Below, one piece after another: positions 30,154-52,678 of a stretch of 64,000 nt of DNA. Under the pieces are notes generated by a model. The model was given only the letters and a program-made list of their open reading frames with translations. It had not been told where the DNA came from and did not search any database. The position numbers and the translations under genes were made by a program. The stretch is from Psammoneis japonica (taxonomy: Eukaryota). The stretch is taken from the NCBI GenBank assembly GCA_008632985.1, contig QPGO01000073.1, positions 124,001-188,000 on the forward strand, given 5' to 3'. How positions within the stretch are numbered: the first letter of the stretch is position 1; every line of letters starts with the position of its first letter.

Positions 30154-30185
30154 CGTGTGCTCGTAAGGTTAATACCAGTTGTCCG

Positions 30186-30873: not shown

Positions 30874-31095
30874 TTGCGTTGCACACCACCAGAGCATGTT
30901 CGATGCGATGAAGTGCGCGACTTTTTGTTTGGTCTCGAAACAAGCGCTTGACACTGGGCTGCACACTCGAGCAGTCCAAGGGTTGGGCACTTGTCAATTG
31001 ACTGGCATTGCATTCATGCAGCATAGCAAAAAGATTCAATTCAACAAGACTGCCATGGTGGGTCATTCGAAGCACCAGACTGCCGGCTGCAGTTG
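30860..31095 (+). pseudogene. Degenerate 3' fragment (last codons plus 3' flank) of a sulfotransferase-like paralogue
   Basis: KKKLRCTPPEHVRCDEVRDFL aligns to QKKVHSSPQERIRYDDVYEYL of the 32037 gene. Nucleotide similarity continues through GTCCAAGGGTTGGGCACTTGTCAATTG and AAAAAGATTC..AACAAGACTGCCATG. A second copy lies at ~38595-38825. Confidence 0.75.
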
Positions 31096-31403
31096 ACCAC
31101 TGACGTCACACGCGAAGCCGATGGGTGCAGCCACACAGCTCTCTGCTCTCTCTCTCTCTCTCTGCTCCAGCTGGCTGGCTCTGGCAGCCCTGGCTAGCTG
31201 GTTAGAGGGCTCTGCTCTAGCTAGCTAGCTGGTAGCTAGTGCAGTAGAGAGGCCCTCCACTCTCTCTCTCTCTCTCTCTCTGCCAGCTGGAGGGCAGGTG
31301 CTCGTAGCAGCTGCTCACAAGGCTGCACAATTTCGAAATTTTGAGGCGCGCGCGCGCAGGGGCCGTGCATGATGGATAGAGCATGGAAGATTTCGCGCGC
31401 CGA

Positions 31404-31828: not shown

Positions 31829-32036
31829 CGCGCCGATGATGATTTCCTGAGGTGAAGCGACATGCTCACATTCTTTCAAAATTGTGCTTCACTACTCTCC
31901 ACTAGCAGAGGGAGAGTAAGTCAAACTCTAGAGAACAATATCGTATTGAGCAAAAGACTGCAAAGATCAAAGACATTATCGACCTTTAATTCACTCGGAC
32001 GGCAATCTCTTTTCATAACCCAATTCAAACGACAAC

Positions 32037-33182
32037 ATGGGATCCGAAATGCACGTTGCTGACAATGATAGTGGCGTTTTGGAATCAATCAACGTGGGCA
32101 ATGATGGTGCTTTTGTGGAATTGAGGAGCTTGATTCCTGACAACCAAACCCAAGAAAATCACGGCGAACCAACGCTGTGTTGCAGACGCAGGAATCTTTG
32201 GGTGACGATGTCGTTCATGTTCTCTGCATTGACGCTTTGGGTGACGATATCGTTCGTGTTCTCTACATTGACGTTCTCCCAGATATACGGCACGTCTGCC
32301 GAGAATCCGTCACTCAAGCTTTTTCCCTTCACAAGTAGCATTCCATTTCGAGATCTGTCGAATCGTGCAAGGGTGCAGATTGAGAATTACAGAAGAGCAA
32401 CCGGTTTGATGTTGAATGTTCACATTACTCATCATGGAGGAACGTCGTTTTGTCATTCGGTTGGTCATGCCAACGATACAGTGGGTGGTACTCCGCCGTT
32501 TGCATGCCTGGGTCTCAAGGATTTCAACGTGTCGGAAGACTATCCCAAGCCCAAGGAAACTCCCTGGAAACACAATGAAACTGCAAAGCACATTGCCACT
32601 GTGCGGAAATACTTTCACATGATTTCTTGGGAATACTCGAGTCCACCATCCACCCCCATTGCCGAAACTAATTTTGAAGATCCAAACCTTCTCTCTGTCA
32701 TCGTTATGCGACATCCAATATCGAGGCTATTGGCTGGCAATGGGTGGGTCGCAAAAACTTATCCTGGTATTCGCAAGGGCAATGCGACTCACGAGGAGTG
32801 GTGGGAGTATGCGCAAACAACGCATGGGAACACCAACAACTTTGCTCTCCGTGTCCTGGCCGGCAAGGAATGTTGTGACGGTGAAAAAACTGATCCGAAA
32901 CACTTGCAAGCAGCCAAGAAACTGGTTGGGCGCTTTTCTATTGTCCTAGACATCGAATGTCTCGATGAAGGGATGAAGGCATTGACTGATTTGTTGAACA
33001 TCACCATGCAAAAAAACGGCAGGGAACGTCAGAAAAAGGTGCATAGCTCGCCACAAGAGCGCATTCGATACGATGACGTGTATGAATATTTGCTTCGTCG
33101 CAACAAGCTTGACATTGAGCTGTATGAGTGGTCCAAGGGTTTGGCACTTGTCAATTGTTCGGCTCTGAATGCGTCTGTCTAA
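32037..33182 (+). CDS. Sulfotransferase-like (family 2-like) type II membrane protein, copy A
   Basis: TM anchor; NVHITHHGGTSF, VIVMRHPISRL and RNKLDIELYEW motifs; intact 381-aa ORF. Confidence 0.8.
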   Translation: MGSEMHVADNDSGVLESINVGNDGAFVELRSLIPDNQTQENHGEPTLCCRRRNLWVTMSFMFSALTLWVTISFVFSTLTFSQIYGTSAENPSLKLFPFTSSIPFRDLSNRARVQIENYRRATGLMLNVHITHHGGTSFCHSVGHANDTVGGTPPFACLGLKDFNVSEDYPKPKETPWKHNETAKHIATVRKYFHMISWEYSSPPSTPIAETNFEDPNLLSVIVMRHPISRLLAGNGWVAKTYPGIRKGNATHEEWWEYAQTTHGNTNNFALRVLAGKECCDGEKTDPKHLQAAKKLVGRFSIVLDIECLDEGMKALTDLLNITMQKNGRERQKKVHSSPQERIRYDDVYEYLLRRNKLDIELYEWSKGLALVNCSALNASV

Positions 33183-33831
33183 GATTAGCATCACATTCGT
33201 GTAGCATAGGCGCCACGGCAAAATAAAAAGATTCGATCCAATAAGACTACCATGACGGGTCTTTCGAAGCAACAGGCTACCGCTATAGATTTTCAACATG
33301 CTTGCATGTGTGATAGCTCAAACATTATCTAGCAACTAGCTAGAGGCGCTTCGTTGCATTGATAGACATACATGATGCTTCAGAACAAGTCATCACCTCT
33401 GCTTCCCAAAGATGGTGTTCTCCAGTTGATGCTATGACCTGCAGTGTGACATGGATGTCTGTCTTCCTCGCCAGCAATTTCAATTCTCAAAAAGATTTAC
33501 AAAAGCACTGACACAGAGACACAGAGATGACCATGTTGCTGGAATTCTGCAGTCAGTTGGTGAAGCTGTTGCTTCTTGCTGACAGAAGGGGGTGTGGTTT
33601 GACACCCAGTGGGCAAAAAAAAAAATGTCTCAGTTGTGCTGACTTGCAAGTAAGACCAAAAATTGAGCTTGAGCTGTTTGCAGCCTGGGCTGTGCACTGG
33701 CAAGGAGAGGGCCTCCTGGGCTGGTGTGAGTGCCACTGTGAAACAAAAACCCAGCATGCGTGCAGGGCAAAAAATGTGCAGTGGATGGAGTGAGCAAGAA
33801 AGAGGCCATGCCAAGGATTCTCCCATTGTTC

Positions 33832-34294
33832 NNNNNNNNNNNNNNNNNNNNNNNNNNNNNNNNNNNNNNNNNNNNNNNNNNNNNNNNNNNNNNNNNNNNN
33901 NNNNNNNNNNNNNNNNNNNNNNNNNNNNNNNNNNNNNNNNNNNNNNNNNNNNNNNNNNNNNNNNNNNNNNNNNNNNNNNNNNNNNNNNNNNNNNNNNNNN
34001 NNNNNNNNNNNNNNNNNNNNNNNNNNNNNNNNNNNNNNNNNNNNNNNNNNNNNNNNNNNNNNNNNNNNNNNNNNNNNNNNNNNNNNNNNNNNNNNNNNNN
34101 NNNNNNNNNNNNNNNNNNNNNNNNNNNNNNNNNNNNNNNNNNNNNNNNNNNNNNNNNNNNNNNNNNNNNNNNNNNNNNNNNNNNNNNNNNNNNNNNNNNN
34201 NNNNNNNNNNNNNNNNNNNNNNNNNNNNNNNNNNNNNNNNNNNNNNNNNNNNNNNNNNNNNNNNNNNNNNNNNNNNNNNNNNNNNNNNNNNNNN
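33832..34294. other. Assembly gap (463 N)
   Basis: Run of N. The paralogous interval ~49644-50140 is of similar length. Confidence 1.
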
Positions 34295-36729
34295 CTTTTT
34301 GCAGCTCTGATGCCAAAATCAACAAGGTGCCACCATTGCTGTTGTTTGAGTGTGGGAAGACAAAATGGGATGAGTGAGGTGGTGCTGAAAGCACATCAAA
34401 CTCCTGCTCCAAAAGAAGTGGGCCACATGGGAGAAGCCATCATTGTCACAATCAGACATCTGCTGCCCCAAAAAGCTGGTGTGAGTTTGCTCCACATCTT
34501 GCAAATGACAAAAAGTGCATTTGCCATTGAAGCATTGCCCAACCATCACCTTGTTGTTCATCAACAGAGATGTGACCCTCATGCACGCCAAGGGGTCAAG
34601 AGGAGCAGACAAAAGAGGGAGATACACAGGTTGAGAGTTGACATGTTTGGCAGGGTTGTGGACACAGCCCATTGGGGGACAAGCCAATGGAGTGGTTGAG
34701 AGATCTGTGCTGATTCCCAAAGAACATGATGCAAAACAGTGTCTCACTTGAAGAGCCAGCAGGAGATGGAGGTGCACCATTGAGGCCAAGCTGGAAGAAA
34801 AACAGATGCTGGGGACACCTTTGAAAATGTTGGCATGCACGTTGGCCATTGTTGTCAGGCATTTTTGATGATGAACACTGGCCAACTCTCTCTGAGATTT
34901 CCAGCTGCAGGCCAGAATGCTGGCATCACACCAAGCTGAGTGCCAAAGGTGCAGCAAGTGCCAAAGCAGCCCCCCATTGGATGTGTGTGCACACTCACCC
35001 ATCATGCTCAGCCAGCTCCTTTTGGCACACACCACACACAAAACCAGAAACAAAAGAAGCTGATGTTCTCTGACTCACGAGGATTCAAGGGCAAATCACA
35101 AACACTGAATTTTTTTGCACACAACTTGCTGGCAACCAGATGCTGTGCTTTCCTTGGCACAGTCAGCTGGCAAGAAAGGAGCTGGACGCTTGTTTTCACA
35201 TTCACAAAAGGAGGGTCAGAAAGAGGAGGAGGCAGAGGGAACAAAAGCAACATCGTCAAAATGCCAGCCATCAAGATGGACATGTTTGCATCTCTCTGGT
35301 GCCAGCACAGCTGCGGCATCAGTGTGCATCATTTGGCTGCCCAGAGCAGCAGGTGTGTAGCCACAAAGGCCTTTCTGGAGGAAACAAAAAGAGCAATGAT
35401 CGCTGACGTCACATCATGGAATCTCCTGCGGAAGCCAGTGCATGACCGAGCATGCGGTGCACAAGTGTTTGATGAGCCTTGGGTGTGAAGAACCTGTGTT
35501 TGAATGACTTCATTCTGCACTTTAGACAGTTCAATGTTGAGCAATGAAAACTTGTGATGTGTCACTTGCAGGGGTGGTCAGGCACATGCGCGCCGCACCG
35601 CGTGCACACAAAATCAGTGACCACAGCCGTCGCCACCAAAATGAGCATTCTCGATTTTGTGTTGATGCCATTGGACCTGCTGTTGTCAAACCAAAAACTG
35701 ATTCACAATGAAAACAAATGAAAAGATTGTCTGGACCCAAGATGTGCTTCTTCATTGTCACATTCTCAGTGAGTGCATCACATCACGGCATTTTTGCAAA
35801 GGTGACGGACTCTCCATTGATTGAATTTGTTGTTTTGTTTTCTCAACTTTTTTTGCTTTAATCTTTGTCCACATTTCTGCAGGAAAATGCTGGGGCAGCT
35901 CAAGTTGATGCCACATCATGCGAGGTGGATGCAGTTGATGCCATGTCAGACGGGGCGGCTCACTTGCATGCTGCATCACACTGTGCGGGGTGGCTCAAGC
36001 ACACACCAATGTTGAACATCCCATGGAGTGGCAAAAGGGTGAGGAGAATTCTTCACTTTAAAATCTGCAATCTGCCACTTTTGGGAAAGTCCCGAAACAA
36101 AGGGCAGACAAGGTTGCTCTCATCTCTGACAATTGCGAGCAACTGTGCCAAGGTGGCTGACTGCAGTGGCGCCTCGGCAATTTTTTCTGCAAGACGGCCT
36201 GCGAGAGCCAAGGGGTGGTTCCCTGGCAAGACTGAGAGTGGTGCCTCCATGGAAGGGGGTGCCGCTTGACGTGCTGTGACCCGAATCTCTGTCAGACAGG
36301 GTTCGCCTGCCCTCAAAGGTGGTGATTGGTTGTTGTCAAGGAACATGGCAGGATGGAAGGATAAAACAGCTGGATTGAATTGATCTGCAATGCGAAAAAG
36401 CTGTGGTCAAGGAAACAAACATCACGTGTTTTGTGTTGATGCAATTCCACACCCAAACAGAGTGTCCACTGATGAATTCGGGCATTCCAAGAACTGTGAA
36501 TTGACTGTTGACGCTTTTTCAGCAGTGCTTGACAAGTGCATCAAATCCGCCATCAAGAGTGGAATTTTCTTCATCAGTGTCCCAGGAAATGATGTCTTCC
36601 ACCCATGGTTGTTGCAACTCCTTTGCAAGCACCCTCAATCTGTGCTCAAACTGACGGCATTTGTTGCATGCTCAGCCAACTCCAATGCTCATCAACTGAT
36701 CGCACGTGAGGGCCTTTGGAATCATCGAT

Positions 36730-37010
36730 TGCCACCACATGTTGACTTGTTGCTCTGGAAGCCATGACTTGCTCCAGTCCTGGTGTCTTGTTGGCATTCT
36801 TGCAAGGAAGTGCAAAAACCAACTTGGGCCATGGGTGTCCCTCGCCCACGGCAGCTCCCTGTGACTTGTGACCACTGGTGGCTTTACAAAACACAAAGTG
36901 GGATGGTTGTGGCAGAGCAACAGTTGTTCTCACACCGCAATGTCACTGCTGGAACTGGAACACAGGTTGGTGGCAACCCTGGAATGAGCTTGTCTTCTTC
37001 AGGGATGGCA
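36730..37010 (-). pseudogene. PIF1-family helicase C-terminal remnant within a hypermutated element (~35390-38340), possibly Helitron-related
   Basis: Frameshifted minus-strand reading VPVPAVTLRCENNCCSATTIPL..KATSGHKSQGAAVG...TPGLEQVMASRATS matches SF1B helicase motifs V/VI (T.HKSQG.T...G..YV..SR). Confidence 0.65.
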
Positions 37011-37398
37011 GAATCGGAAAATCTACAATGACACAGGCGGGGTGCTTGCGTGCTCCATGGGATCGTCTGGTCCAAGCTCGTCATCGTAAATGATGTGCTT
37101 GATGGCACTGATTGAACCATTCCTGATGTCTTGGCATCGTGCCGTCTTGTTGGTGTTGCAGTCGTCGACTCAATGCATGGGCAGTTCTTGCTCCTGCTCT
37201 TTGATTGTTGCAATGCATGGATGCTGTTGAGGCCAATGCGGTGTGTCACCCATGGTCTCGTGTGTCCGACGATGCCCTTCTGGTCCTGTTCTCGTGAGAA
37301 TGGTGAGAACCGAGATCAAAAAATGAAAATGAAACACAGATCGGCAGGAGATGGACGACGAATGGACACATCTTTCGAACAACTCAGAAACAACAGGA

Positions 37399-37680
37399 AA
37401 CCCCACGAAAAAGTTTGTGCCCCCAAGGAATCCCCACGAGAAAGTTTGCAGCCCCCAGGAACTTAATCACGAGAAGTTTCTAGCTGGAATGGCGTCAGGA
37501 ATCACAATGGAAAACTTTGCAAGCCCCAGGAACCCCCTTGCAAAAATTTGCATCCCCCAAGGAACCCCGGCGAGAAAGTTTGCATCCCCCCAGGAACACA
37601 ATCCAAGAAATGGCATCAGCCACCAGGAATGCAATGGAGAACTTTGCATCCCCCACCCCAGGAACCCCCGCAAGAAAGGG
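37399..37680. repeat. Imperfect ~29-bp minisatellite (CCCCAGGAACCCC..GAAAGTTTGCA)
   Basis: Repeated CCCCAGGAA and AAAGTTTGCA words at ~29-30-bp spacing. Confidence 0.75.
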
Positions 37681-39124
37681 CATCCAGCGAATGGCACTCT
37701 TGCTAGACTGCAGAGCTGAATGTTGCATGTTGGACTCAATGGATGTGAAGCGAGCACATGCAAATGCTCCAGCATTTGCACAAAAACTGTCAAAACAATT
37801 GAGATCTAGACATCTCACACAAAAGCAAGAATGACCCTCACGGAAATTTTACGCAAAAAATGACATGGCCATGGCAATGAAAGTCGCTCACATTGCTCCC
37901 ACAGTTTGACATGCTGCAAAAGCAAGGCATGAATCAACGCGCATTGTCAAGCAGATGTCAAATGACAACAATGTGTGCAATCGGTGGCAACCTTGGTGCT
38001 CAAATCGAAGGCGCACTCTTGACACCAAAAATGACCCTGCAGAAACCCACACAAATTCTGCACAAAAATGAAATCACCAATCAATGACCCTGTTACAAAC
38101 GGCAACCGATGACGCTGCACATGCCATGTCTACAATCAACCAACACATCACGAGGTTTGTCAGACAATGAAGGATGCGACCATGCCAACAAAAGTGGCGT
38201 GCCACACAAACGGCAATGACAGTGAGTGGGTCATTGTCGATGTGGCACATTTCTGCAACTCGACTGCCACGGATTGAGAATTTCACACTCTGGGGGCAAA
38301 AGCAAAGACACACAGGCAGACAAAAAATGCATGACCGAAGGTCATGCATGTTGGTGCGAATGGTGGAGGCAGTTCACTTGGTGTGCATGTTCCACACATT
38401 TTTGCTCAATTTTGAAATTTTGACTGTGCGCGATGGAGTGCGACTGCAGCAGGATGAGAACAGACAGTGATGTTGAAAGTGGGGCACGGGTGCACGAGAT
38501 GGATCGGATGTGGATGCCGGCAGTGGTGGCTTGTGAGCCATGAAGGGAAAATGATCTGTTGACACTGCATTGCAACAACCCCTGTGGTGAGAAATGCAAG
38601 AAAAAGTTGCGTGGCATGCCACCAGAGCATGTTCAATGCATGAAGTGCACGACTTTTTGCTTCGTTGTCTCGAGACAAGCTTGACACTGGGCTGCACTTG
38701 AGTGGTCCAAAGGTTGGGCACTTGTCAATTGATTGGCATTACATTCATGCAGCACAGCAAAAAGATTCGATTCAACAAGACTGCCATGGTGGGTCATTAG
38801 AAGAACCAGACTGCCACTGCAGTTGACCAATGACATCACATGTGTGGAGTGCGGCAGCCACACAGCTCTGCTCTCTCTCTCTCTCTGCTCCAGCTGGCTG
38901 GCTCTGGCAGCCCTGGCTGGCTGGCTAGAGGGCTCTGCTCTGGCCAGCAGCCAGTGTGGCAGAGAGGCCCTCCACTCTCTCTCTCTCTCTCAAACGAACG
39001 ATCAAAATTGGCGAAGCCATTTTCCATCAAATGTGACAAACAATGGCAGTCAAGTGGCTGAGGCAGAGCCACTTAATCAGGTGTTTGTCCAACTGTTTCA
39101 GCAAATGGCAGGCACAACAACCTT

Positions 39125-39172
39125 GGCCGAAGTCAGGAGAACAAGACTTTCACGGTGGCTTCATCAGCGGCC
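39125..39172 (-). ncRNA. Type I hammerhead ribozyme motif, pLTR copy 1
   Basis: Minus strand: GGCCG CUGAUGA A GCCACCGU GAAA GUC-(10 nt)-GAC UU CGGCC. Conserved core boxes; stems I and III pair. Confidence 0.75.
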
Positions 39173-39417
39173 GGCTGTTGTTGTTGATGTGCGGTGGGCG
39201 TTGTTGCATTAAAAAGATCCAAAGAAGGACAGAAAGGTTGATTAAATTGATTCAATTCAAGTTGTTGTCTCTCTCTCTCTCGAATGAGAACGATCAAAAT
39301 TGGCAAAGCCAATTTTCTGTCAAATGTGACAAACAACAGCAATGCAAGCAGCCAAGGTGGAGCCACTCAATCGGATGTTTGTCCAACTGTTTCATCAACA
39401 GCAGGCACAACAACGTT

Positions 39418-39465
39418 GGCCAAAGTCAGGAGAGTGAGACTTTCGCGGTGGCTTCATCAGTGGCC
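39418..39465 (-). ncRNA. Type I hammerhead ribozyme motif, pLTR copy 2 (best preserved)
   Basis: Minus strand: GGCCA CUGAUGA A GC-CACC-GC GAAA GUC-UCACUCUCCU-GAC UU UGGCC. Confidence 0.8.
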
Positions 39466-42400
39466 GGCTGTTGTTGTTAACGTGTGGTGGGCGTTGTTGC
39501 ATTAAAAAGATCCAAAGAAGGACAGACGGGTTGATTAAATTGACAATCCAACAGGACAAAACAGGGGGGCCATGGGAGACTCGGAGCACACGGTGGGAAA
39601 GGAGATTTCCAAGATTGCAGGAGCGACAGCAACAAACAATCATGTGGTTGAGGCCGATGTGTTGTCGGGCGTGATTTCGAAGGTTTGAGAGAGGTTGTGA
39701 GCAGGGAGGGTTGGCCATTGCACCTTTCCACAATTTCCACAGTTCACTGGATGGCGGGTTGTTTGGATGGCAAGGAAGGTGCAGGAAGATTGGGTTTGAC
39801 TGGGGCTCTTCTGTTGTTCCATCAGCATTGCCAAAGATGAGGTCATGTGCTTTTCAGAAGAGCGGTTGTAGTTTGCTGGGTTTGCAACCCCGGGCTTGCA
39901 GTCAAAGGCAGAGCAGGCTTGCTTTTGCTTTTGCGTGGTGGTGTCGGAGCACAGGTTTTTAAAGCGGCGGAGCACACCCATGATGAGGCCGGTGAGTGCT
40001 CCAGGTGGGTGAGCTGAGTGAGGTTGGATGTGCACACACAGATTCATTTCTTTTTCATAGAGGGTGGTGTGGATGTGGGGGCCTTGGAGCAAGATCATCA
40101 GGCCCATGAAGTTAACTTGGTGGCTTCGTGGGCTTGTGATCCATGCAATGTCAAGTCATTCAGTCTGGAGGTGAATGCTTCCCAGGTGGCAGCGTCAGTG
40201 GCAGTGTCAGTGATGTGCCAAATGCTGAAGACGTCATCAACAAATCGTTTGCAATGAAAAAGCTGGGAGCTGAACTCCTCCAGGAGCATGTCTTGTGGAG
40301 TGCGCAGTGCAAGGTGGTGCACGGAGGGGCGGGTGGTGTGCCCATGGCGGCTCCGTTGCGCTGGTGCCAAGTGGTGTCTCCGAAGGTGAGCACATTGTTT
40401 TCCATCACAATTTGGAGTGCTTTGATGAGGGCATCCATTGGCATGTCGCCACATTCGTGTTCATGACGTCGGAGGCAGAAGGCAATCAATCGAAGTGCTT
40501 TTCTGGCAGGCATGTTAGAGCAGCAGGCCTCGGCATCAGATGTGAAGAGGAGGCAATGCAGTGGCGTTTCCATTTGGATGAGTGCTTGTTTCAGGTCCAG
40601 GGAGCTCTTGAAGTGTGGTCATTGGCGGCGAGCAACTTTCTGGAGCTTGTCATCCACCCACATGCCTGAGCCGTAGAGCAGGCTGCTGCTGGTGGAGACG
40701 ATCGGTCGGGATCGGAGCGGAGGGGGCTTGTGCACCTTTGGAGCAAGGCAGAAGATGGGGAACGGGTCTTTGTCAGTTTCAAGACAATGTTTCAGACACT
40801 TGCGTTCCATCGGGGCAAGGCTGGTTTTACATGTCTTGAGCCAGTCATTGAGGAGGTTTTTGATGCGGTGTTCTTGGGTTCTAGCTTCAAACTTGCTCAA
40901 AAATCGACACGCGTTGGCGTCGTTGAGATGATTGCGAAATGCCATCTTGATGCATTTGGTCTTTTTGATGATGGCCGGGCCCCAGGTTCTTGTTGCATTG
41001 GGCTGTTGTGAAGTCGTCTTGTTTGCAAAGAAAGGCCAGGGCACATTGTTGGTGAGGCAGCAGGTTGGTTCTGCCACGGCGTTTCACAAAGAGGTCAGCA
41101 ACTTGTGACTTAAAAGTGGTGCATCGATGGGTGACAATGTTGGTGAGTTTCCAGGAAGGGGGGGTCCAGCTGGAATGGAGGCACATCCTGGCATTGCAAC
41201 CTCCGTCGTTGTTGTTGACAGGTGCACTGGTAAAGCAACCTCGTTTGTCAAGGTCTTGTTTGAATCTTCCAAGTGCATGTTCTTGGATCTTGGAGGACTT
41301 CCCATTGTTGGTGAAGCATGGAGCAGGAACAAATTTCAAGCTGAGACCAAGCAGTGATTGGAGGTTCTTTGGTGGTTGTTTGGTGGTGGTGCAATCATGG
41401 AAGGCAAGGTGTGAAGGCCTGTCAAAGTGGCGCCAGGCAGGCATGTGTCGCAGGTGGGTGCAGGCATTGTGTCGGATTGTGTGAGATGGGTCGGCGACGA
41501 ATCCGTGTGTGTGATGGACTCGGCGCTCTGTTGCCTCCAGTGCCTGTTCCAATTGTTGTTGGAGCACTGCTGCTTCTTTTTCGATTGCTGTTTCGATTTG
41601 GCGCGGTGGCGATTGTTTTTGTTTGCACTTGTGGTGTCATTGTTGGCATCGTCGACTTTGCGGTCGCGTTGAGCACGTTGTTTCTTCATGCGAGCCGATG
41701 AGGCACCTTTGCCCTTTTCTTTTTGTGATGAGGCGCGGCGGTGTAGTTTGGCCCCTCGGGTTGTTTGACTGCTGTGCTTTGATGGACTTGAGGTGTTGAG
41801 CAAGCGTGTTGACCTGTTGGGAGAGTTTTTTGGTGTTTTTCTTGGTCTCCTTGCGGATGAGCTCTTGGAGGGTGGGAGGGTCGACTGCAGCTTTGCCATC
41901 AATTTCCATGTTTGCACTCTCCGCAGCCTTGGTGTTGAAGTGTTCCTTGTTGAGTTTCTTCAATTGGAGGCTGATGTCGTGTTTCTGTTTGGATGCTGGG
42001 TGGGCAGTCCAGGGAGACATGAAGATGCATTCAAGCACCCGGAAGATCTTGCTGAGTTCAGTCTCGATTTTCTGTTGCACGGCGGTGATTTGTGGAGCGG
42101 CGGGTGCTGGTGCTGTTTCTTGTGTGAGGAACAAGGAGTCACCAGCTCGGTCGTCTTGAGTTTGAGACTGTCAAGCGGTTGGAGCAACCAGCGGTTGCGG
42201 CAGATCAGCAACGGCATTTGCTGTGTTGCATTTGGTGAGAAACGCGTTGAGGTTCTCGACCTTGACACATTTTAGCAGCATTTCATGGTGGCGGTCAAGT
42301 GGGGTGACCACTGCGGTGTCGACAGGTGTGGTGATGCTGTTGGCCACAGCGAAACTTTTGGTTGCGAGTCGGATGGCTTTTGTGCAGGACTTAAAAAATT

Positions 42401-42797
42401 CTTCTTGGATGATGTTGAGTTTGATCCTGGTGGCTTGGACAACTTGCTTTTTGAAGGCTTTTTGGGTGGCAGAGATGAGATTGTTGGTTTCCTCCTGCAG
42501 AGCTAAAAACTCCTGGCTCTGTTCAGCGGTTTTCGACATTTGGAATTCGAAATTGATTCGGGCTGAGTTTGGGGATGAACTCTTCATCGCTTTCCATCCA
42601 TTGGATGTGAAAGGCCTTGTCATGGGCCTCAGCTTGCAATTGGATTTGGTTGATGGCAAGCTTCTCAAGGATGGTGGCTGTTTCTGGTTGGAGTGACACG
42701 ACATGGTCCCTGATGCGTTGGGTGGTGGCAGCAAGGGGTGTCCTTGTTTGCTGGTTGGCTGGGTTCACCGCAGTTGAATCGAAACACACACGATGTT

Positions 42798-42845
42798 GGC
42801 CAAAGTCAGGAGAGTGAGACTTTTGCGGCAGCTTCATCAGCGGCC
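42798..42845 (-). ncRNA. Type I hammerhead ribozyme motif, 5' pLTR (core damaged, GAAA->AAAA)
   Basis: Minus strand: GGCCG CUGAUGA A GCUGCCGC AAAA GUC-UCACUCUCCU-GAC UU UGGCC. The G loss is a CpG->CpA change. Confidence 0.68.
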
Positions 42846-42943
42846 GGCTGTTGTTGTCAACGTGCAGTGGGCGTTGTTGCATTGAAAAGATCCAAAGAAG
42901 GACAGACAGGTTGACCAAATTGATTCAATTCAAGTCAAGTTGT

Positions 42944-42979
<36 letters not shown>

Positions 42980-45099
42980 CATCCGAAGAAGGACAGACAG
43001 GTTGATTAAATTGACCCAATTCAAATCAAGTTGTTGTCTCTCTCTCTCTCTCTCTCTCGAATGATCAAAATTTCTCTCTCTCTCTCTCTCAGTGGCCTCC
43101 ATGTTTGCAATCTGACAGGACGAAACTGGGGGGCATGGGAGACTGGAGTGTGCGGCACGAAAGGAGATTTCCAAGGTTGTGGGAGCAACTGCAGCAGACA
43201 ATCATGCGGTCAAGGCCGATGCATTGTTGGGCGCAGTTTTGAAGGATTGAGAGGGGCTGTGAGCAGGAAGGGTTGGCCATTGCACCTTTCCACAATTTCT
43301 GCAGTTCACTTGATGGTGGGTCATTTGGGTGACAGGGAAGGTGCAGGAAAATTGGGTTCGACTGGGGCTTTTCTGCTGTTCTGCAGCATTGCCGAAGTTG
43401 AGGTTGTGCACTTTTTGGAAGAGTGGTTGCAGTTTGCCAGGTTTGCAGTCTCTGGCTTGCAGTTGGAGGCAGAGCAGGTTCATTTTTGCTTTTGCGTCGG
43501 CAGTGTTGGAGCACAGGTTTTTAAAGCGGTGAAGCATGCCCATGATGAGGCTGGCGAGTGCTCCAGGCGGGTGAGCAGAGTGAGGTGGGACACACATGCA
43601 GAGGTTCATTTCTTTTTCATAGAGGGCAGTGTGAATGTTGGGGCCTTGGAGCAAGATCATCAGGTCCATGAAGTTGACTTGGTGGCTTCGTGGGCTTGTG
43701 ATCCATGTGATGTCGAAGTCATTGAGCCTGGAGGCAAATGCTTCCCAGGTGGCAGCATCAGCGGCAGTGTCAGCAATGTGCCAAATGCCGAAGACGTCAT
43801 CAATGAATTGTTTGCAATGAAAAAGCTGGGAGCCAAACTCCTCCAGGAGCATGTCTTCATGAAGTGCACAGCACAAAGTGGCACGCGGAGGGGCGGGTGG
43901 TGTGCCCATGGCGGTTCCGTTGCACTGGTGCCAGGCAGTGTCTCCGAAGGTGACACATTGTTTTCCATCACAATTTGGAGGGCTTTGATGAGGGCATCCA
44001 TTGGCACGTCGTCACATTCGTGTTCATGATGTCAGAGGCAGGAAGCAATCAATCGAAGGGCTTTTTTGGTGGGCATGTTGGAGCAGCAGGCCTCAGCGTT
44101 GGATGTGAAGAGGAGGCAGTTCGATGGCGTTTCCATTTGGATGAGTGCTTGTTTCAGGTCCAGAGAGCTCTTGAAGCATGATCGTCGGCGGCGAGCAACT
44201 TTCTGGAGCTTGTCATCCACCCAGATGCCCAAGCCATGGAGCAGGCTGCCGCCAGCAGAGACGATCAGTCGGGGTCAAAGCAGAGGGGCAAAGTGCACCT
44301 TTGGAGCAAGGCAGAAGATGGGGAATGGGTCTTCATCAGTTTCAAGGCAATGTTTCAGGTGCTTGTGTTCCATCAGAGTGAGGCCATTTTTGTGTTCCTT
44401 GAGCCAGTCACTGAGGACTCTCTCTCTCTCCAGTGGCTAGAGGGCAGGTGCTTGTGGCACAGCTGCTCTCTCTCCACTGGCAGTGGTGCAGCAGTGGCCT
44501 GCACAAGGCCACACAATTTCAAAATTTTGAGGCGTGCGCAGGGGCCGTGCATGCGGCCATGGAAGATTTTGTGCAAGCAGTCTCGCGCCCCACAGAAAGC
44601 CCTGCAGACACGCATCATGCTCAACTTCATTTGCTGGGGGAGTTTGCCAGTGTCCATCCGCCCAAAATCAATCGCTGTCAGACTGCGCTGCACAGAATGT
44701 GGTGCATTTCCAATGATGAGAGAACAAATTCAAAATTTGTCAATGGCAAAATTGGCGCTCATCTCTGTGATGCTCATTTCAAAGACGATCGGGTCCACAA
44801 CACCAACAACCCCCATCCTGTGACTGACACGTGTGTGTTGTGAAGCCATGGTGAGAAAATTGATCATGTTAAGTTGTGTTTGTGCACCATGTGGTGCAGA
44901 GTCATGTTTTGATGTTTTTGGGGTGGTGTCTGCCCTTGTGTTGCCTGCTCACAGTCGTTTGCTTCATCTCATGTTCTAGAGCAAGGTGCTGACATTGCAT
45001 TTTTTGCAGCATTGATGCTTTGTGAGTGCGTTGGATTGAGTTGTGGATTGTGGGGGCATCCTCAGTGACCAGCGCTGCTGATCATTCAGGGACACAGCA

Positions 45100-45590
45100 T
45101 GCAGGAACCGCTTCATGTCGACAGTGCACAAGAGCTGGACTTGGAACTTGACAAAACAACTCTGGAATGACTCACATGGAACGATTGTGGAGTGCTGTTG
45201 TGTGTTTGAATCATCTGTCAATGCATCCTTGCAGTTGAGCGTTGATCTCGCGGTCTAGCATGTCTCCCTCGTGGTTGGGTGCGCAGGAACCACTTCATGT
45301 CGACAATGCACGAGAGCTGGACTTGGAGCTCTGGAGTGACTTTGTGGAACAATTGTGCAGTGCCATCATGCATTTGAATCATCTGTCAATGCATCCTTGC
45401 AGTTGAGCATCAATCTCGTGGTCTTGCGTCTCATCCTCGTGGTTGGGCACGCAGGAACCTCTTTCACGTCAACAGCGCACAAAAGAGCTGGACCTGGAAC
45501 TCGACAAAATAACCTGGAGTGACTTTTGTGGAGTGTTGTTGTGCATTTGAATCATCTGTTCATGCATCCTTGCCATTGAGCACTGTCAAT
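45100..45590. repeat. Three diverged tandem copies of a ~170-180-bp unit
   Basis: GCAGGAACC...AGAGCTGGAC...TTTGAATCATCTGT.ATGCATCCTTGC recurs at ~45101, ~45283 and ~45451. Confidence 0.85.
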
Positions 45591-46198
45591 CTTGTGTCTC
45601 GTCCTTGTTGCTGGCATGCTGCAACCATGTCGAGTCGATTGTGTGCGATGGTTTGACGTGGGAACACAACAAAAACAGTTGGAATGATTTTTGCATTTGC
45701 CATTTTGACACAATTGATTTGTTCCATCACATTTTGGGCTCATTTGGTGACACATCCTTGTGGTCTAGCGTGATTTGCATCGCACCCTCGTTCATGGATG
45801 TGTCTGCCAGAAAACCCGCTGTGTCGATTTTGTGCCATTGCTCTGCTTGGAACCCAACAACAACTGGAGTGTGTCAGTTTGGTCTGGGGTTGTTTGGTTG
45901 TGCGAAGATTTTTGTCTGGTGAAACAAAAACTGTGATTGGAGGCAGCAACACATGTGGTTGGGTTGCTGTGCCAATCTTCAGTCTTTTTGCACGCAACAA
46001 CTTTGAGACTGTGAAACCCTTCTAAACCAACCAAAGTGTCATTTTAAGAAGCACAGTCACATTGTTCAGTGATGAATTTCATGTTGAAAGTTGGACTTGG
46101 AGAGTCGCATCATGCTGTGCCCTGCAGCAACAGTGTGCTGTGATTGTGCAAAATTGTGACATCCCCCCAGCAAATGGAGTCAAGCGTGACTCGCGCTC

Positions 46199-47606
46199 CT
46201 GGCACTGTCAATCCCGTCTGACCGTTGCCACCAAAAAATTTTCAGCACGTGAAAAAAAAGTTTTTTTTTGTGGAACGAATCCACCATGGCAACATCTCAA
46301 GCAGCTCCAACGGGCCATTGCGGCCTCTCCATGAACCAATGCGGAGCGACGCCGACATTTTCTCTTCCCACATTGAGTGGTGTGCGTCAAGAGGATGTCT
46401 CCAACGTGGGGAGATGTGTTGGTGCTCGACAATGCTTCGACTCACCTCTGCTGCCGTGAGTCGGAATCTCTTGATGAGTGGCTTTTTGATGAGTTTGGCA
46501 CATTGCTTCTGTTCCCACCAACTTGCTCCCCCAAGTTGAATCCCATGGAGAAAATGTGGCTCACATTGGCACAGCAACTCAAAAGCTGGGACCTTCACGG
46601 TCCGTGTCCGGTGCGAGATGCAGCAGCACACGCTGCTGCAGCCATCATGGATTCGTTCATGCATGATGATGTTGCTGTGGTGCATGCTCTTTGTGGCTGC
46701 CCGCAAGCCAACTGGATCACTGCCAAAACAACAACAGATTGCAATTTCGATTTTGACAACTGGAGCACAAAAAGACATCGATCTGCTTGGAGCGCTCGTC
46801 CACTCAAACAATCTTGTGGCCTGGATCGTGGCTGCAGCAGCATCTTCCACTCAAACACAACACAGCATTCTTTTCTCCACACTGTTGATGCAATCAATGA
46901 AGAAGCTGCAAGCTTTTCGCATTCCATGTTGTCGCAGACTCCCACACTCCATTTGGGCAACATCTTGAATGCACGTTCACTGCACTGAGGTTGGAAAGAT
47001 CAACGCTTGAGTCTTGCTTCCATCAAAAAACAAACAATCAATCTCAACACATGACACCCAAATCAGATCACTCATCACTGGCCACATCATTGTCGGGCAC
47101 CACATTGGATCCTTGCGAAAGCCCAAACTCGCACATGTCATCTCCTGCCTCCTCGTTGATCGGATCGAACTGCTCCTGCATGTTGCGGGCTCTTTCCTCC
47201 TTTTCATGCTGCAATGCAGCCCATGCCCAGGCATGCAAACTTGTTCAACACATAAAAAGACATTGTTGGACAGCGAGCCATGTGGGGAGAAACCTGTTTG
47301 CAGCACAAACAAACGACTTTCGTCGATTTCACGGCATGCAAACAACAATTTGCACATTTTGTGACAATTCTCTCTCTCTATTGGAACATGCCTTGACAGC
47401 TCTTTCGCATTGCAGCTTTGTCAATCATACAAAGACGTTTACAAAACGCCCCTGGACGTCTCTGGGCGTTGCCTGGTTGCTAAGAAAACACACCGAAAGT
47501 TGTCTGATGGCATGATTGCTTGATTCGTTCCACAAAAAAAAACTTTTCTTTCACGCGGTGAAAATTTTTTTGGTGGCCACGGTCAGACGGGATCGACAAT
47601 GCACCG
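46199..47606 (+). mobile_element. Internally deleted IS630/Tc1-mariner element with ~85-bp TIRs
   Basis: Inverted repeats at ~46199-46281 and 47522-47606, the right one followed by TA. DDE_3 remnant LVLDNASTH...LLLFPPTCSPKLNPMEKMWLTLAQQLK at ~46410-46585. Confidence 0.8.
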
Positions 47607-47841
47607 TATGCGTGAGACGACGACTCGACTCCTCCCTTGTGATGATTTTTGAGGTGAAGCGACATGCTCACATTCTTTCAAAATTGTGCTTCACTACTCT
47701 AGCTACTCTCTAGAGGGAGAGTAAGTCAAACTCTAGAGAACAATATCGTATTGAGCAAAAGACTGCAAAGATCAAAGACATTATCGACCTTTAATTCACT
47801 CGGACGGCAATCTCTTTTCATAACCCAATTCAAACGACAAC

Positions 47842-48993
47842 ATGGGATCCGAAATGCACGTTGCTGACAATGATAGTGGCGTTTTGGAAACAATCATCAT
47901 GGGCAATGATGGTGCTTTTGTGGAATTGAGGAGCTTGATTCCTGACAACCAAAGCCATGAAAATCACGGCGAACCAACGCTGTGTTGCAGACGCAGGAAT
48001 CTTTGGGTGACGATGTCGTTCGTGTTCTCTGCATTGACGCTTTGGGTGACGATATCGTTCGTGTTCTCTACATTGACGTTCTCCCAGATATACGGCACGT
48101 CTGCTGAGAATCCGTCACTCAAACTTTTTCCCTTCACAAGTAGCATTCCATTTCGAGATCCGTCGAATCGTGCAAGGGTGCAGATTGAGAATTACAGAAG
48201 AGCAACCGGTTTGATGTTGAATGTTCACATTACTCATCATGGAGGAACGTCGTTTTGTCATTCGGTTGGTCATGCCAACGATACAGTGGGTGGTACTCCG
48301 CCGTTTGCATGCCTGGGTCTCAAGGATTTCAACGTGTCGGAAGACTATCCCAAGCCCGAGGAAACTCCCTGGAAACACAATGAAACTGCAAAGCACATTG
48401 CCACTGTACGGAAATACTTTCACATGATTTCTTGGGAATACTCATACTTGAATCCACCATCCACCCCCATTGCCGAAACTAATTTTGAAGATCCAAACCT
48501 TCTCTCTGTCATCGTTATGCGACATCCAATATCGAGGCTATTGGCTGGCGATGGGTGGGTTGCAAAAACTTATCCTGGTATTCGCAATGGCAATGCGACT
48601 CACGAGGAGTGGTGGGAGTATGCGCAAACAACGCATGGGAACACCAACAACTTTGCTCTCCGTGTCCTGGCCGGCAGGGAATGTTGTGATGGTGAAAAAA
48701 CTGATCCGAAACACTTGCAAGCAGCCAAGAATCTGATTGGGCGCTTTTCTATTGTCCTAGACATCGAATGTCTCGATGAAGGGATGAAGGCATTGACTGA
48801 TTTGTTGAACATCACCATGCAAAAAACCGGCAGGGAACGTCAGAAAAAGGTGCATAGCTCGCCACAAGAGCGCATTCGATACGATGACGTGTATGAATAT
48901 TTGCTTCGTCGCAACAAGCTTGACATTGAGCTGTATGAGTGGTCCAAGGGTTTGGCACTTGTCAATTGTTCGGCTCTGAATGCGTCTGTCTAA
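47842..48993 (+). CDS. Sulfotransferase-like type II membrane protein, copy B
   Basis: Intact 383-aa ORF nearly identical to 32037-33182, with a 2-aa insertion (EYSYLNPP vs EYSSPP) and scattered substitutions. Confidence 0.8.
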   Translation: MGSEMHVADNDSGVLETIIMGNDGAFVELRSLIPDNQSHENHGEPTLCCRRRNLWVTMSFVFSALTLWVTISFVFSTLTFSQIYGTSAENPSLKLFPFTSSIPFRDPSNRARVQIENYRRATGLMLNVHITHHGGTSFCHSVGHANDTVGGTPPFACLGLKDFNVSEDYPKPEETPWKHNETAKHIATVRKYFHMISWEYSYLNPPSTPIAETNFEDPNLLSVIVMRHPISRLLAGDGWVAKTYPGIRNGNATHEEWWEYAQTTHGNTNNFALRVLAGRECCDGEKTDPKHLQAAKNLIGRFSIVLDIECLDEGMKALTDLLNITMQKTGRERQKKVHSSPQERIRYDDVYEYLLRRNKLDIELYEWSKGLALVNCSALNASV

Positions 48994-51900
48994 GATTAGC
49001 ATCACATTCGTGTAGCATAGGCGCAACGGCAAAATAAAAAGATTCGATCCAATAAGACTACCATGACGGGTCTTTCGAAGCAACAGGCTACCGCTATGGA
49101 TTTTCAACATGCTTGCATGTGTGATAGTTTAAACATTATCTAGCAACTAGCTAGAGGCGCTTCGTTGCATTGATAGACATGCATGATGCTTCAGGACAAG
49201 TCGTCACCTGCTTCCCAAAGATGGTGTTCTCCAGTTGATGCTATGACCTGTAGTGTGACATGGATATCTGTCTTCCTCGCCAGCAATTTCAATTCTCAAA
49301 AAAATTTACAAAAGCGCTGACACAGAGACACAGAGATGACCATGTTTCCGGAGTTCTGCAGTCAGTTGGTGAAGCTGTTGCTTCTTGCTGACAGAAGGGG
49401 GTGTGGTTTGACACCCAGCCAGTGGGCAAAAAAACTGTCTCAGTTGTGCTGACTTGCAAGCAAGACCAAAAATTGAGCTTGAGCTGTTTGCAGCCTGGGC
49501 GCTGTGCACTGGCAAGGAGAGGGCCTCCTGGGCTGGTGTGAGTGCCACTGTGAAACAAAAACCCAGCATTCATGCAGGGCAAAAAATGTGCAGTAGATGG
49601 AGTGAGCAAGAAAGAGGCCATGCCAAGGATTCTCCCATTGTTCCAGCAAGTTCAAGAACACCACTGCAGAGTGGCCAAGGCATCTGCACCATTGCTGAAA
49701 TCAGATGGCACACTTCACCGTGAGGAGATGTTTGAGCCTGTTTGTGTCTGCAAGTGATGGAGGGTGTCACTTGCATCACAAGCCCAGTGGCTGGGTTGTT
49801 GTCACAGCTGCCACTTTGGTCATTGCCGCCGTTGCAGTTGCAGCCATCATGATGGCAGCAGCCTCTTTCATCACACACTCAGCTTGCTGAGCCCCAACCT
49901 CCATCATTGCATTGGCCGCCATGACCACCACCACTGCAGTTTGGTCCCCCCTCCCACACACACACACAACTGAGGTCATCAGGAATGTCACAACATTGAA
50001 GTCATGTGTGACCAGACAAGAGAGTTGCCTGGCTTGGAGACTGACTCTTGCTGCCCTCTGCTCCTTTCTTGCCACACTCTCCGTGCTTGTTGTGGCTGCC
50101 ACCACTGCCGTCATGTTGCCGCCAGTGTTGCCATGCTCTTTGCAGCTTTTTTACAGCACTGATGCCAAAGTCAACAAGGTGCCACCATTGCTGTTGTTTG
50201 AGTGTGGGAAGACAAAATGGGATGAGTGAAGTGGTGCTGAAAGCATGTCAAACTCCTGCTCCAAAAGAAGTGGGCCACATGGGAGAAGCCATCATTGTCA
50301 TTGTCAGACATCTGCTGTCCCAAAGAGCTGGTGTGAGTTTGCTCCACATCTCGCAAATGACAAAAAGTGCATTTGCCATTGAAGCACTGCCCAACCATCA
50401 CCTTGTTGTTCATCAACAGAGATGTGACCCTCATGCACGATGCATGCCAAGGGGTCAAGAGGAGCAGACAAAAGAGGAAAGACACGCAGGTTGAAAGTTG
50501 ACATGTTTGGCAGGGTTGTGGACACAGCCCATTGGGGGCAAGCCAATGGAGTGGTTGAGAAATCTGTGCTGATTCCCAAAGAACATGATGCAAAACAGTG
50601 TCTCACTTGAAGAGCCAGCAGGGGATGGAAGTGCACTGTTGAGGCCAAGCTGGAAGAAAAACAGATGCTGGGGACACCTTTGAAAATGTTGGCATGCACG
50701 TTGGCCATTGTTGTCAGGCATTTTTGATGATGAACACTGGCCAACTCTCCGCTGAGATTTCCAGCTGCAGGCCAGAATGCTGGCATCACACCAAGCTGAG
50801 TGCCAAAGGCACGGCAACTGCCAAAGCAGCCCCATTGGATGTGTGTGCACACTCACCCATCATGCTCAGCCAGCTCCTTTTGGCACACACCACACACAAA
50901 ACCAGAAACAAAAGAAGCTGATGTTCTCTGACTCACGAGGCTCAAGGGCAAATCACAAACACTGAAGTTTTTTGCACACAACTTGTCAACAATCAGATGT
51001 TGTGCTTTCCTTGGCACAGTCAGCTGGCAAGAAAGGAGCTGAGCCCTTGTTTTCACATTCACAAAAGGAGGGTCAGAAAGATGAGGAGGAGGTGGAGGGA
51101 AACAAAAGCAACATTGTCAAAAGGCCAGCCATCAAGATGGAAATGTTTGCATCTCTTTGGTCCCAGCGCAGCTGCGGCATCAGTGTGCATCATTTGGCTG
51201 CCCAGAGCAGCAGGTGTGCATCCACAAAAGCCTTTCTGGAGCAACCGCCAATCACCAAAAAAGGCAGTGGAAAAAAGTCAATGATGGGGAGGTGGGGAGA
51301 AGCTGCTCCAGCTGTGGCTGAGTGTTTGACATGCTTGAAGGAGATCACTTGGGGGTCCTGGGCATGGATCACCATGGCACAAGAGGTGCTCTGATGAGCT
51401 GTGTGAAAAACTTCATTGCCAGCATGCATGTGCTTTGTGCTGCAACAAAAGGCACTTGAGCGTGTCATTGAACTGTGAGAGAGCAATGCCTTGCACTTCA
51501 TGCTGTCACAAGTGCAAGGCAAAGCAAGCACCATGAACATCAAAGTGCTCCAAGCAGGCCAAGTGGACAAGGGTGAGTGTCTTTGTGCTTCAAGATCCAG
51601 CTGCTGGCAGGCCCACTCTGTCTCACAACAGTGAGCAGTGCACAGTGCAAGCATCAAAGTGCACTTTGAGCATGGGGGTCATGAGAGTGAGCATCGCACA
51701 GTTTTTCAAGCCCCTGCTGACAATGGGCCACACCCTGCTCCTTTGAGCCATCACAAGCATGACAAAACACAACCCAAATTCTGTGTTTTGGGTGCTGCTG
51801 GGCTCCCATCCCACAACTCCGCAATGAGCCACTGGCCCATGCCCCATCACAAGCATTGCAGTGAGAAGCATGAGCCCCAAAGCACTTTGAGCCTTTGAGC

Positions 51901-52678
51901 ATGATGAGGGCAAGCATCACTGCGCTTCTTCATGTCAAGAAGCACAGGCGACCAACCACAAGGACAACAAGCATGAGACTGAACATGTGGCTGGTGCTGG
52001 CTGGTCGAGCAAAACACAACATTGTGCACTCTCCACTGGCTGCACCAGACCAATTGTGGACTGCCAAGACCACCATCAAGTTGACGGAAGAGGCCCGCAA
52101 TGAAGATGACACTAACGAGAACTGCGCTGACTTTGCAAAATCTTGGTTTGCCAGCGATGAACATCCAACCAAAGTGCAAGACCCTCACGGATGTGAACCC
52201 TTGCAGTCATTTGTTTGACAACAATCTGCGTTTTGCACCAGCACATGAGCTCAAACAAAAATCATGAACAATGTTTGTTCACAGCATGAAGACAGCTGGA
52301 CACAGCCATTCAGTGAAGTGCTCAATTTTCTGATTTTGAAAAACCGAAATTTCTGAAATTCCCCGTCACAGATCAGCTTGCGCACAGGCTTGGGCTGCTC
52401 GGGGATCGGCAAGTTGCTTCACGGGACAAGAACAAACGTTGTTGAGCAAGAAAATGTCGAAATGTCGAGTCAACGACGTGGATCACGCACTTCAACATTG
52501 TCCAAAGCTGAAGCCATTCAGAGGCATTGTGTGACATGGTGTGGCACTGGATTGTCACAAGAGACGCTTTCCGCCACCCAGCCTTCCCGGCTGCATCTCG
52601 TAAAAGGGGAAAGTGCAAAAGCTTTCTTTCCGGTGAAGGCGGTTGCAATGCACTCTTCGAGATCAACAGCAAGATGGG

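Follow-up and report, generated by a model that had tools for sequence, protein, structure and literature searches.

A decayed Penelope-like element within a (CT)n microsatellite of Psammoneis japonica, and lineage-specific repeats among its apparently endonuclease-less relatives

If a Penelope-like element (PLE) encodes no endonuclease (EN), where in a genome can it insert? EN-minus PLEs are said to occur at chromosome ends alone, since they need a free telomeric 3' end, and to attach there by way of reverse-complement telomeric repeats (PMC8557442). The question is raised anew by a stretch of 64,000 nucleotides of the Psammoneis japonica genome (GenBank assembly GCA_008632985.1, contig QPGO01000073.1, positions 124,001 to 188,000 of the forward strand; the whole stretch is hereafter the window), in which a decayed partial-tandem array of a retroelement with two open reading frames (ORFs) occupies positions 38992-44417 on the minus strand, inside a (CT)n microsatellite. 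We consider it probable, with some reserve, that the array is a dead partial-tandem insertion of an EN-less PLE akin to Coprina or Athena, in which a heritable microsatellite tail stands in for the telomeric one and insertion is primed by annealing. Taken by itself, the copy in the window is an ordinary dead insertion; what makes it interesting is the pattern that it brings to light at the level of the family.

The insertion can be recognized because a paralogue of the host repeat lacks it. Positions 38363-38991, to the left of the array, match 30631-31276 at 84.6% identity over 655 columns, and in a three-way alignment the right flank (44418 to about 44540) resumes this paralogue from 31270 across a single (CT)11, such that the 5.4-kb array occupies what the paralogue has as one repeat tract. 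This empty site had been proposed in a preliminary description of the DNA made from its letters alone, and both the pairwise match and the three-way alignment bear it out. The same description had placed the array within (CT)n, with further (CT)n at internal junctions, and all six tracts, two of them outer and four internal (Table 1), are where it put them. Each reads CT on the plus strand, i.e., (GA)n on the sense strand of the element. Because (CT)n/(AG)n tracts of at least 12 nt make up a mere 120 of 58,400 bases (0.21%) in the rest of the window, the position of the two outer junctions within one tract is not attributable to chance. Roughly 100 nt further upstream, each of the two paralogues has another (CT)n that belongs to the host repeat family (31146-31163 and 38871-38886). 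A 351-nt tandem repeat at 30185-30874 is part of the host repeat that took the element.

Read in the sense direction, the array starts from the host flank and (GA)6.5, continues through a first, truncated copy (copy 2), (GA)9, some 15 nt of the end of a module that we call U, and (GA)11, and then passes through about 58 nt of leader and (GA)15 into the full-length copy 1 (leader, ORF1 and reverse transcriptase, RT). It closes with a U module that no repeat precedes (U1), (GA)7, another U module (U2), (GA)8.5 and the host flank. U is about 276-293 nt long and begins with the 108-nt leader and the first 14 or so codons of ORF1, followed by a tail, some 120-140 nt in length, which ends in GATCGTTCG followed by (GA)n; on the plus strand the antisense of this tail comes directly after the (CT)8.5 tract, as repeat priming predicts. 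A partial tandem with a pseudo-long terminal repeat (pLTR), in which a truncated copy precedes a full-length one, is given as standard for PLEs (PMC8557442), and it is the arrangement found here, where copy 2, truncated at its 5' end, is situated upstream of the full-length copy 1 and the leader recurs in U1 and U2. Since a truncated copy, a full-length copy and then a repeated terminal module follow the standard PLE layout, the array may, to judge from its order, be one insertion rather than several. The idea of an element punctuated by (CT)n is thus sound as regards the tracts, with the correction that they belong to a typical PLE partial tandem for which separate insertions are not required.

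Every copy in the array is dead, being interrupted by stops and frameshifts. In copy 1, ORF1 has one frameshift near 42570, one in-frame stop (42171-42173) and a basic C-terminal tail, and the RT, with a basic N-terminal extension to about 41660, runs through several frames with in-frame stops; copy 2 retains an uninterrupted frame of 269 amino acids (aa) at 44011-43205. Pfam detected no RT in nine translated pieces of the window, because hypermutation has turned conserved tyrosines into cysteine or histidine (where relatives are conserved, Tyr-to-Cys is the most frequent change), and the proteins were therefore analysed through intact relatives. The 269-aa frame of copy 2, searched against 1.84 billion proteins, returned 3196 representatives at E<=0.001, of which 85 reach E<=1e-30, and the fuller-length matches among the best 150 are mostly of 560-760 aa. 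All of the 2252 clusters retrieved with a profile of 20 relatives are environmental; PF28514 is recorded for them, and for most of them PF26215 as well. Look-alike clusters with these two families are commonest in Rotifera and Arthropoda, which we treat as a lead only. Two long proteins that NCBI assigns to a species of Closterium (a streptophyte alga; P0293 and P0304) have the PF28514 region fused to other domains, as does one frog protein, and the RT family extends well beyond environmental contigs.

By its motifs the RT is that of a PLE. PLEs are diagnosed by GxKF/Y together with a DKG-type motif upstream of RT1 (PMC8557442), and the DKN form of the latter is drawn for the Coprina element Coprina-1_Alen (PMC13159263). 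The relatives have LGLGLKF and an invariant DKNLGP (in alignment A2, G35 and F38 are nearly invariant, and D156, K157, N158 and G160 are invariant); the RT of copy 1 keeps the GxKF motif as LGLSLKF, the DKN motif as NKNLGP, with the N in third place that marks the DKN form, motif B as GAAMGTPPAP and the YxDD box as FVDD. Altogether, the window RT retains 72 of the 100 columns that are at least 90% conserved in relatives. An AlphaFold2 (AF2) model of the RT of one relative, P0008 (pLDDT 88.7), found human telomerase TERT as its best match in Foldseek (9shz_A, E 2.6e-10; 7trd_A), followed by the RT of long interspersed nuclear element (LINE) 1 and by other TERTs, and it is thus in predicted fold only that the RT comes nearest to that of telomerase. 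A sequence-profile search of the PDB gave no match for the RT family, and a search of NCBIfam gave nothing meaningful. Scans of the relatives detected neither an APE nor an RLE domain, PLE motifs are present, and LINE-1 RT ranks below TERT in the fold search, none of which points to an element of the LINE type.

The first ORF is likewise recognizable through relatives: residues 1-91 of the ORF1 of locus L001 (see below) align with 42837-42568 at 45% identity in tblastn, and the ORF1 bodies of L001, L002, L004 and L063 map onto 42572-41710. In an AF2 model of one relative, ORF1 consists of long helices between disordered basic ends; no Pfam family was found at cut-off in any of the 11 relatives' ORF1s scanned, and the fold search with an ORF1 model gave no PDB match at E<=0.001. 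Of the 50 loci in which both ORFs are present, 48 have the RT in the -1 frame with respect to ORF1. The two ORFs overlap by 40-750 nt, and in-frame slippery heptamers (e.g., A AAA AAC) are often found in the overlap. The frames point to programmed -1 frameshifting across the family.

In EN-bearing PLEs the GIY-YIG domain is reported to be C- or N-terminal (PMC8557442). Pfam scans, run without a positive control, found no GIY-YIG domain (PF01541) in 20 RT relatives of 387-761 aa; none was found in six C-terminal segments of 130 aa and four pre-RT segments at E up to 10, nor in 11 ORF1s. The precomputed domains of 13 longer homologues do not include PF01541, and six of these scanned locally had none; nor is the domain on record for any of the 120 near-length matches listed. 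The relatives' RT ends within about 10-30 codons of the end of the window RT (span 41444 to 39542), and in the closest loci the 3' box and repeat described below lie within 8-31 nt of the stop codon. Because the relatives end where the window RT ends, with box and repeat close after it, there is no room for an EN at either end. The preliminary description, according to which the RT ends without a GIY-YIG domain and is preceded by a helical ORF1, agrees with the negative scans of the relatives and with the all-helical model of ORF1. As far as sequence, size and predicted fold can show, the view that the element is EN-less is supported, and its gene content, an ORF1 with a coil plus an RT ORF and no EN, is that of Coprina and Athena.

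The association with microsatellites can be followed in other members of the family. A scan of metagenome contigs for the same RT family gave 80 loci (L001-L080), of which 69 were eligible in having at least 40 nt after the RT match, and we scored microsatellites of at least 12 nt starting within 120 nt. They are present in 14 of the 69, against about 1.5 expected from a background of 0.022 starts per 120 nt (58 starts in 317,147 nt elsewhere in the same contigs). Because five of these 14 loci are close kin, they represent effectively about seven lineages. The repeats are from 15 to more than 108 nt long, and 12 of the 14 loci have a GGGC or GGAGGC box before the repeat, at a distance of at most 16 nt (34 nt in L001), versus 2.6% of background windows.

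In trees built with FastTree (76 rows) and with IQ-TREE in quick mode (42 rows), the window's two copies are sister to L001 with a support of 96 in both, and L001 is the only (GA)n locus, with (GA)19 on the sense strand. These rows belong to a nine-row clade (support 96/98) that also contains L004 and L005, with GT repeats, L002 and L003, with GTT repeats, and two rows without downstream sequence; a microsatellite is present in all five of its environmental rows that have downstream sequence. A second clade, made up of (AAC)n loci and one (AAAAC)n locus, has a support of 98 in FastTree and is unresolved in IQ-TREE. As judged from these sequences, the repeat type is heritable by lineage and clade-specific, with (GA)n in the window and L001, while the repeat of other lineages is (GT)n, (GTT)n, (AAC)n or (AAAAC)n.

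The likeness between the window and L001 extends past the RT, which is 46-53% identical between them. Just before (GA)n they share a 3' box (GGGCCAC/GGAGGCCAC; the two versions are given in Table 1). The sequence GCCACTG, found by (GA)n on both sides of copy 2, was considered as a target-site duplication and rejected, being the relatives' conserved 3' box. A short repeat of the same type as that after the RT also stands just upstream of the ORF1 start codon in eight of 10 loci, and the order RT, box, repeat, U, ORF1 recurs in the metagenome contigs. Between (GA)19 and ORF1, L001 has a module that shares three motifs with U in the same order (ACCCGTCTGTCC, which lies at +36 after (GA)19 in L001, then CCGCTGATGAAG, and GATCGTTCG before (GA)n), two of them exact 12-mers, with an overall local alignment score not above that of shuffles. 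Despite that overall score, the collinear motifs weaken the alternative that U is a random deletion derivative.

We propose that such repeats could serve the element as an address. One unit comprises, in the sense direction, the 108-nt leader, ORF1, the RT (in the -1 frame in intact relatives), the short G-rich 3' box, (GA)n, the U module and again (GA)n, and the transcript would end in (GA)n. Within a (GA/CT)n tract of the genome, this tail could then pair with a (TC)n DNA 3' end that lies exposed, the free end being provided by a break, by a fork stalled at a structure-prone repeat or by a lagging-strand gap. The telomerase-like RT would extend the (TC)n 3'-OH along the RNA, making an element-encoded nick unnecessary, and the 5' side would be joined inside the same repeat. 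Because each unit ends in the repeat, the tandem junctions would also be (GA)n. The microsatellite tail would thereby do for this element what reverse-complement telomeric repeats do for Athena and Coprina. The suggestion, already made from the window, that (AG)n in the RNA primes at microsatellites gains from L001, which has (GA)19 after the same box, and from the sister lineages with other repeats; the priming itself is something that we infer.

If the proposal holds, most genomic copies would be expected to sit in (CT)n. In a search of sequencing runs, a single DNA run and no RNA run was listed as containing the stretch. Other copies in the host were sought among the contigs of this run, which contains 45% of the stretch's sampled words and in which depth is not a copy number. 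At a likeness of at least 80%, 1100 run contigs match the stretch, and other U tails are preceded by (CT)n at loose ends at 39288 (four contigs) and 39281 (three contigs), which is a hint and not a census. In the same contigs the depth on the U module (38992-39560) is several-fold above that on the coding body, and U-(GA)n-U tandems may exist elsewhere, to judge from loose ends. U could be spreading or multiplying by itself, as a non-autonomous or satellite-like unit.

Would the same arrangement arise if the cut were made by something else? A nick in trans, by an EN-bearing element, a host nuclease or a repair activity, would turn the end repeats into the mark of the cutter's preference and not of pairing between RNA and DNA. 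EN-bearing PLEs (Naiad, Chlamys and Neptune) do show a microsatellite bias, which is ascribed to EN-linked domains (PMC8557442), and the priming step in our scheme is not directly seen. However, the repeat type tracks the RT lineage, being the same in the window and L001 despite the distance between their RTs, which fits a tail encoded in cis rather than a host or foreign nuclease; the conserved box-plus-repeat belongs to the element itself, and no EN-bearing relative is found among the 120 matches listed or the 13 longer ones. We therefore regard a cut in trans as unlikely. It might also be supposed that the microsatellites were made by the element, through addition or slippage by an RT that inserts without a target, in the manner of LINE tails, and that the (CT)11 of the paralogue is a solo remnant of recombination. 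The considerable length of the repeats after the RT would suit this explanation, a telomerase-like RT makes repeat addition plausible, and recombination between direct (CT)n tracts leaves exactly one tract. Yet (GA)n also borders copy 2 where its 5'-truncated end meets the host (44418-44430), which a 3' tail cannot explain, the second (CT)n upstream in both paralogues indicates that CT tracts are native to the target, and the outer tracts total 30 nt as against 22 nt at the empty site, i.e., there was no large expansion. An untargeted origin of the repeats consequently seems improbable to us.

It would be more radical to regard the array as an artefact of assembly or recombination, in which low-complexity (CT)n joined unrelated fragments to one another. 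The run is rich in repeats of this family, as the contig count above attests, and no listed piece spans the whole stretch. Against this stand the order of the parts, which is the canonical partial tandem reported for PLEs (PMC8557442), their position on one strand, the collinearity of both host flanks with the paralogue, and the independent metagenome contigs with the same order from RT to ORF1; an artefact is accordingly a very remote prospect.

Several observations weigh against annealing-primed insertion by a microsatellite tail, the reading that we favour. No microsatellite follows the RT in 55 of the 69 eligible loci, many of which have a long 3' hairpin instead, so the trait belongs to two clades and not to the whole family. 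On the metagenome contigs the RT is followed by the repeat, then by a U-like module and the next ORF1, and the repeat may be a tandem spacer or an assembly path rather than an RNA terminus. In the (CAA)n subclade (L009, L011, L012, L025 and L032) the RT frame passes through the microsatellite to a stop 60-120 nt later, and there the (CAA)n would be translated as a homopolymer tail. The local copy of Pfam missed PF28514 and PF26215, which are precomputed for the same proteins, and the GIY-YIG scans had no positive control; moreover, the last 90 or so residues of the RT form, in the model, a small alpha/beta unit to which we assign no role. No hammerhead ribozyme was found in 38500-45000 (Rfam, E<=1), nor at gathering score in 20 related loci, though hammerheads are described in all other EN-minus and EN-bearing PLE clades except Naiad and most Chlamys (PMC8557442). 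Finally, a single insertion was examined with its flanks, and recombination of the flanking (CT)n could, in principle, have produced its empty site as a solo repeat.

The long hairpins form a 3' end design of their own within the same RT family. They stand directly after the RT stop, in the first 90 nt or so, in L027, L029, L034, L035, L039, L051, L052, L066, L070, L073 and L077, with a layout of C-rich run, T-rich arm, GC stem and matching A-rich arm that is conserved in sister clades without microsatellites.

How does the element compare with systems already described? Coprina comprises EN-minus PLEs of fungi, Selaginella and the diatom Phaeodactylum, with Coprina-1_Alen as the model element (PMC13159263). 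As characterized there, it resembles the present element in lacking an EN, in its length of about 4-4.5 kb, in an ORF1 with a coil domain and an ORF2 with nuclear localization signal, DKN, RT and thumb, and in having direct repeats at both ends and the same simple repeat flanking both. In target, however, the two differ: for Coprina the account gives telomeric repeats at chromosome ends, whereas here we find (GA)n at an interstitial site with an empty paralogue, and relatives with other microsatellites. The array is at least 19 kb from either end of the window, its flanks are (CT)n, and no TTAGGG-type repeat accompanies it: two units of TTAGGG, with up to one mismatch, are absent from the window (a motif not drawn from the host's own telomeres), no locus among the 80 contains two or more TTAGGG-type units, and two units of CCCCAA occur in two of the 80. 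The elements differ also in that no hammerhead was found here, and the likeness to Coprina is one of description and not of a tree with named Coprina sequences.

Athena, from bdelloid rotifers, is described as having an ORF1 coiled coil and a frameshift before the RT (PMC8557442), comparable to the -1 frame of the present family. It is also alike in having a short 3' repeat complementary to the priming DNA end. In Athena (ACACCC)n lies next to a hammerhead motif, and the element attaches to telomeric G-overhangs, whereas the repeats here are di-, tri- or pentanucleotide microsatellites whose strand composition depends on the lineage, with no hammerhead found. Naiad, Chlamys and Neptune share the PLE RT and form partial tandems with pLTRs; they too are 5'-truncated and inserted into microsatellites, in their case (TA)n, (CA)n or (C)n, and Naiad and most Chlamys are similarly reported to have no canonical hammerhead; they differ in possessing a GIY-YIG domain (N- or C-terminal) and in a bias ascribed to EN-linked Zn-finger or CxC domains (PMC8557442). 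In our element, by contrast, neither EN nor CxC was detected, and its 3' end itself includes the repeat. Loss of the EN accompanied by a new target has a precedent in PLE-X, for which 28S rDNA is given as the target (PMC8557442). Telomerase, the closest solved fold, extends a repeat-ended DNA 3'-OH on a complementary RNA repeat, as we propose here; unlike it, a host enzyme that recopies a short template, the mobile element would copy its whole RNA.

Copies 1 and 2 are 84.9% identical over 1323 columns in a self-similarity search. They differ at 192 of 1310 aligned sites, by 170 transitions and 22 transversions, and 121 of the 192 differences are at CA/TG/CG-type sites (84 CA-versus-TG doubles and 37 CG-to-TG/CA). 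Because the differences are mostly transitions at such sites, most of the divergence arose after insertion. Examined as candidates for old independent insertions, the two copies prove compatible with one event as well as with several. In the array the observed/expected ratio of TA is 0.07, and base composition indicates that the array and its flanks have undergone TpA-erasing hypermutation (TpA to TG or CA).

In 2-kb bins, TA observed/expected is 0.01-0.14, with CG depleted and TG/CA in excess, at 14001-16000, 34001-47000 and 50001-61000; these bins take in the whole array and both flanks, and gene-like stretches have a TA of 0.5-0.7. The window also contains segmental duplications of 94-97% identity (31837-33831 and 47640-49643; 34296-35380 and 50148-51241; 53022-54825 and 54827-56628), the last pair being a direct tandem.

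Table 1. Parts of the array, its junctions and the paralogous empty site (window coordinates; GA counts refer to the sense strand, CT counts to the plus strand).
Feature	Coordinates	Strand	Evidence or remark
Paralogous empty site: single (CT)11 with both flanks	31260..31281	none	similarity and three-way alignment
Outer (CT)8.5 tract: 3' end of array/host junction, proposed priming site	38975..38991	-	aligned to left part of the paralogue's (CT)11
U2: 276-nt non-coding pLTR-like module	38992..39267	-	self-BLAST 38978-39250 vs 39268-39543, 86.6%
Internal (GA)7 between U1 and U2	39268..39281	-	
U1: second U module, without its first ~20 nt	39282..39545	-	no microsatellite between U1 and 3' end of copy 1
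RT ORF, copy 1	39545..41444	-	tblastn with 10 intact relatives, e.g. P0008 residues 1-645 onto 41444-39542
ORF1, copy 1 (ATG 42837-42835)	41640..42837	-	tblastn with relatives' ORF1
108-nt 5' leader, copy 1, directly after (GA)n	42838..42945	-	box ACCTGTCTGTCC at +30
Internal (GA)15, immediately upstream of full-length copy 1	42946..42975	-	
Leader fragment, ~58 nt (start of U module)	42979..43036	-	TRF 91-nt repeat 42890-43058
Internal (GA)11	43037..43058	-	
Fragment of U tail end, ~15 nt (AAATTTTGATCATTC)	43059..43072	-	
Internal (GA)9, directly after 3' box of copy 2	43073..43090	-	
Conserved 3' box, sense GGAGGCCACTG, abutting the microsatellite	43091..43101	-	L001 counterpart GCGGGCCACGG
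Copy 2: 5'-truncated RT, from upstream of RT motif 1 to 3' end	43091..44417	-	
Outer (CT)6.5 tract: 5'-truncated end/host junction	44418..44430	-	tract calls and three-way alignment

A literature search, with supplements and two earlier papers outside its scope, found no paper describing EN-minus PLEs with microsatellite tails or with interstitial microsatellite targets. In the texts that it covered, the microsatellite bias of EN-bearing PLEs and the telomere attachment of EN-minus ones are already in print; what appears to be new is the EN-minus element with a microsatellite tail. We tentatively extend this to the family, in a generalization that could hold although we hesitate to call it probable: a large EN-less group related to telomerase, to date known mostly from environmental DNA, may use a 3' box and an exchangeable repeat as an RNA address that directs it to matching interstitial microsatellites, and may have been re-addressed several times. 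As a bolder corollary, the RT may add repeat units as telomerase does, seeding or lengthening microsatellites.

If these proposals are correct, repeat-pairing alone can substitute for an endonuclease, and the address of an insertion would be a short RNA segment that has been swapped repeatedly in evolution. With its boundary box and repeat template, such an element would be a natural intermediate between mobile RTs and telomerase. The family thus suggests a nuclease-free insertion system with its address in the RNA, and would offer a source of microsatellite-associated structural variation in protists.

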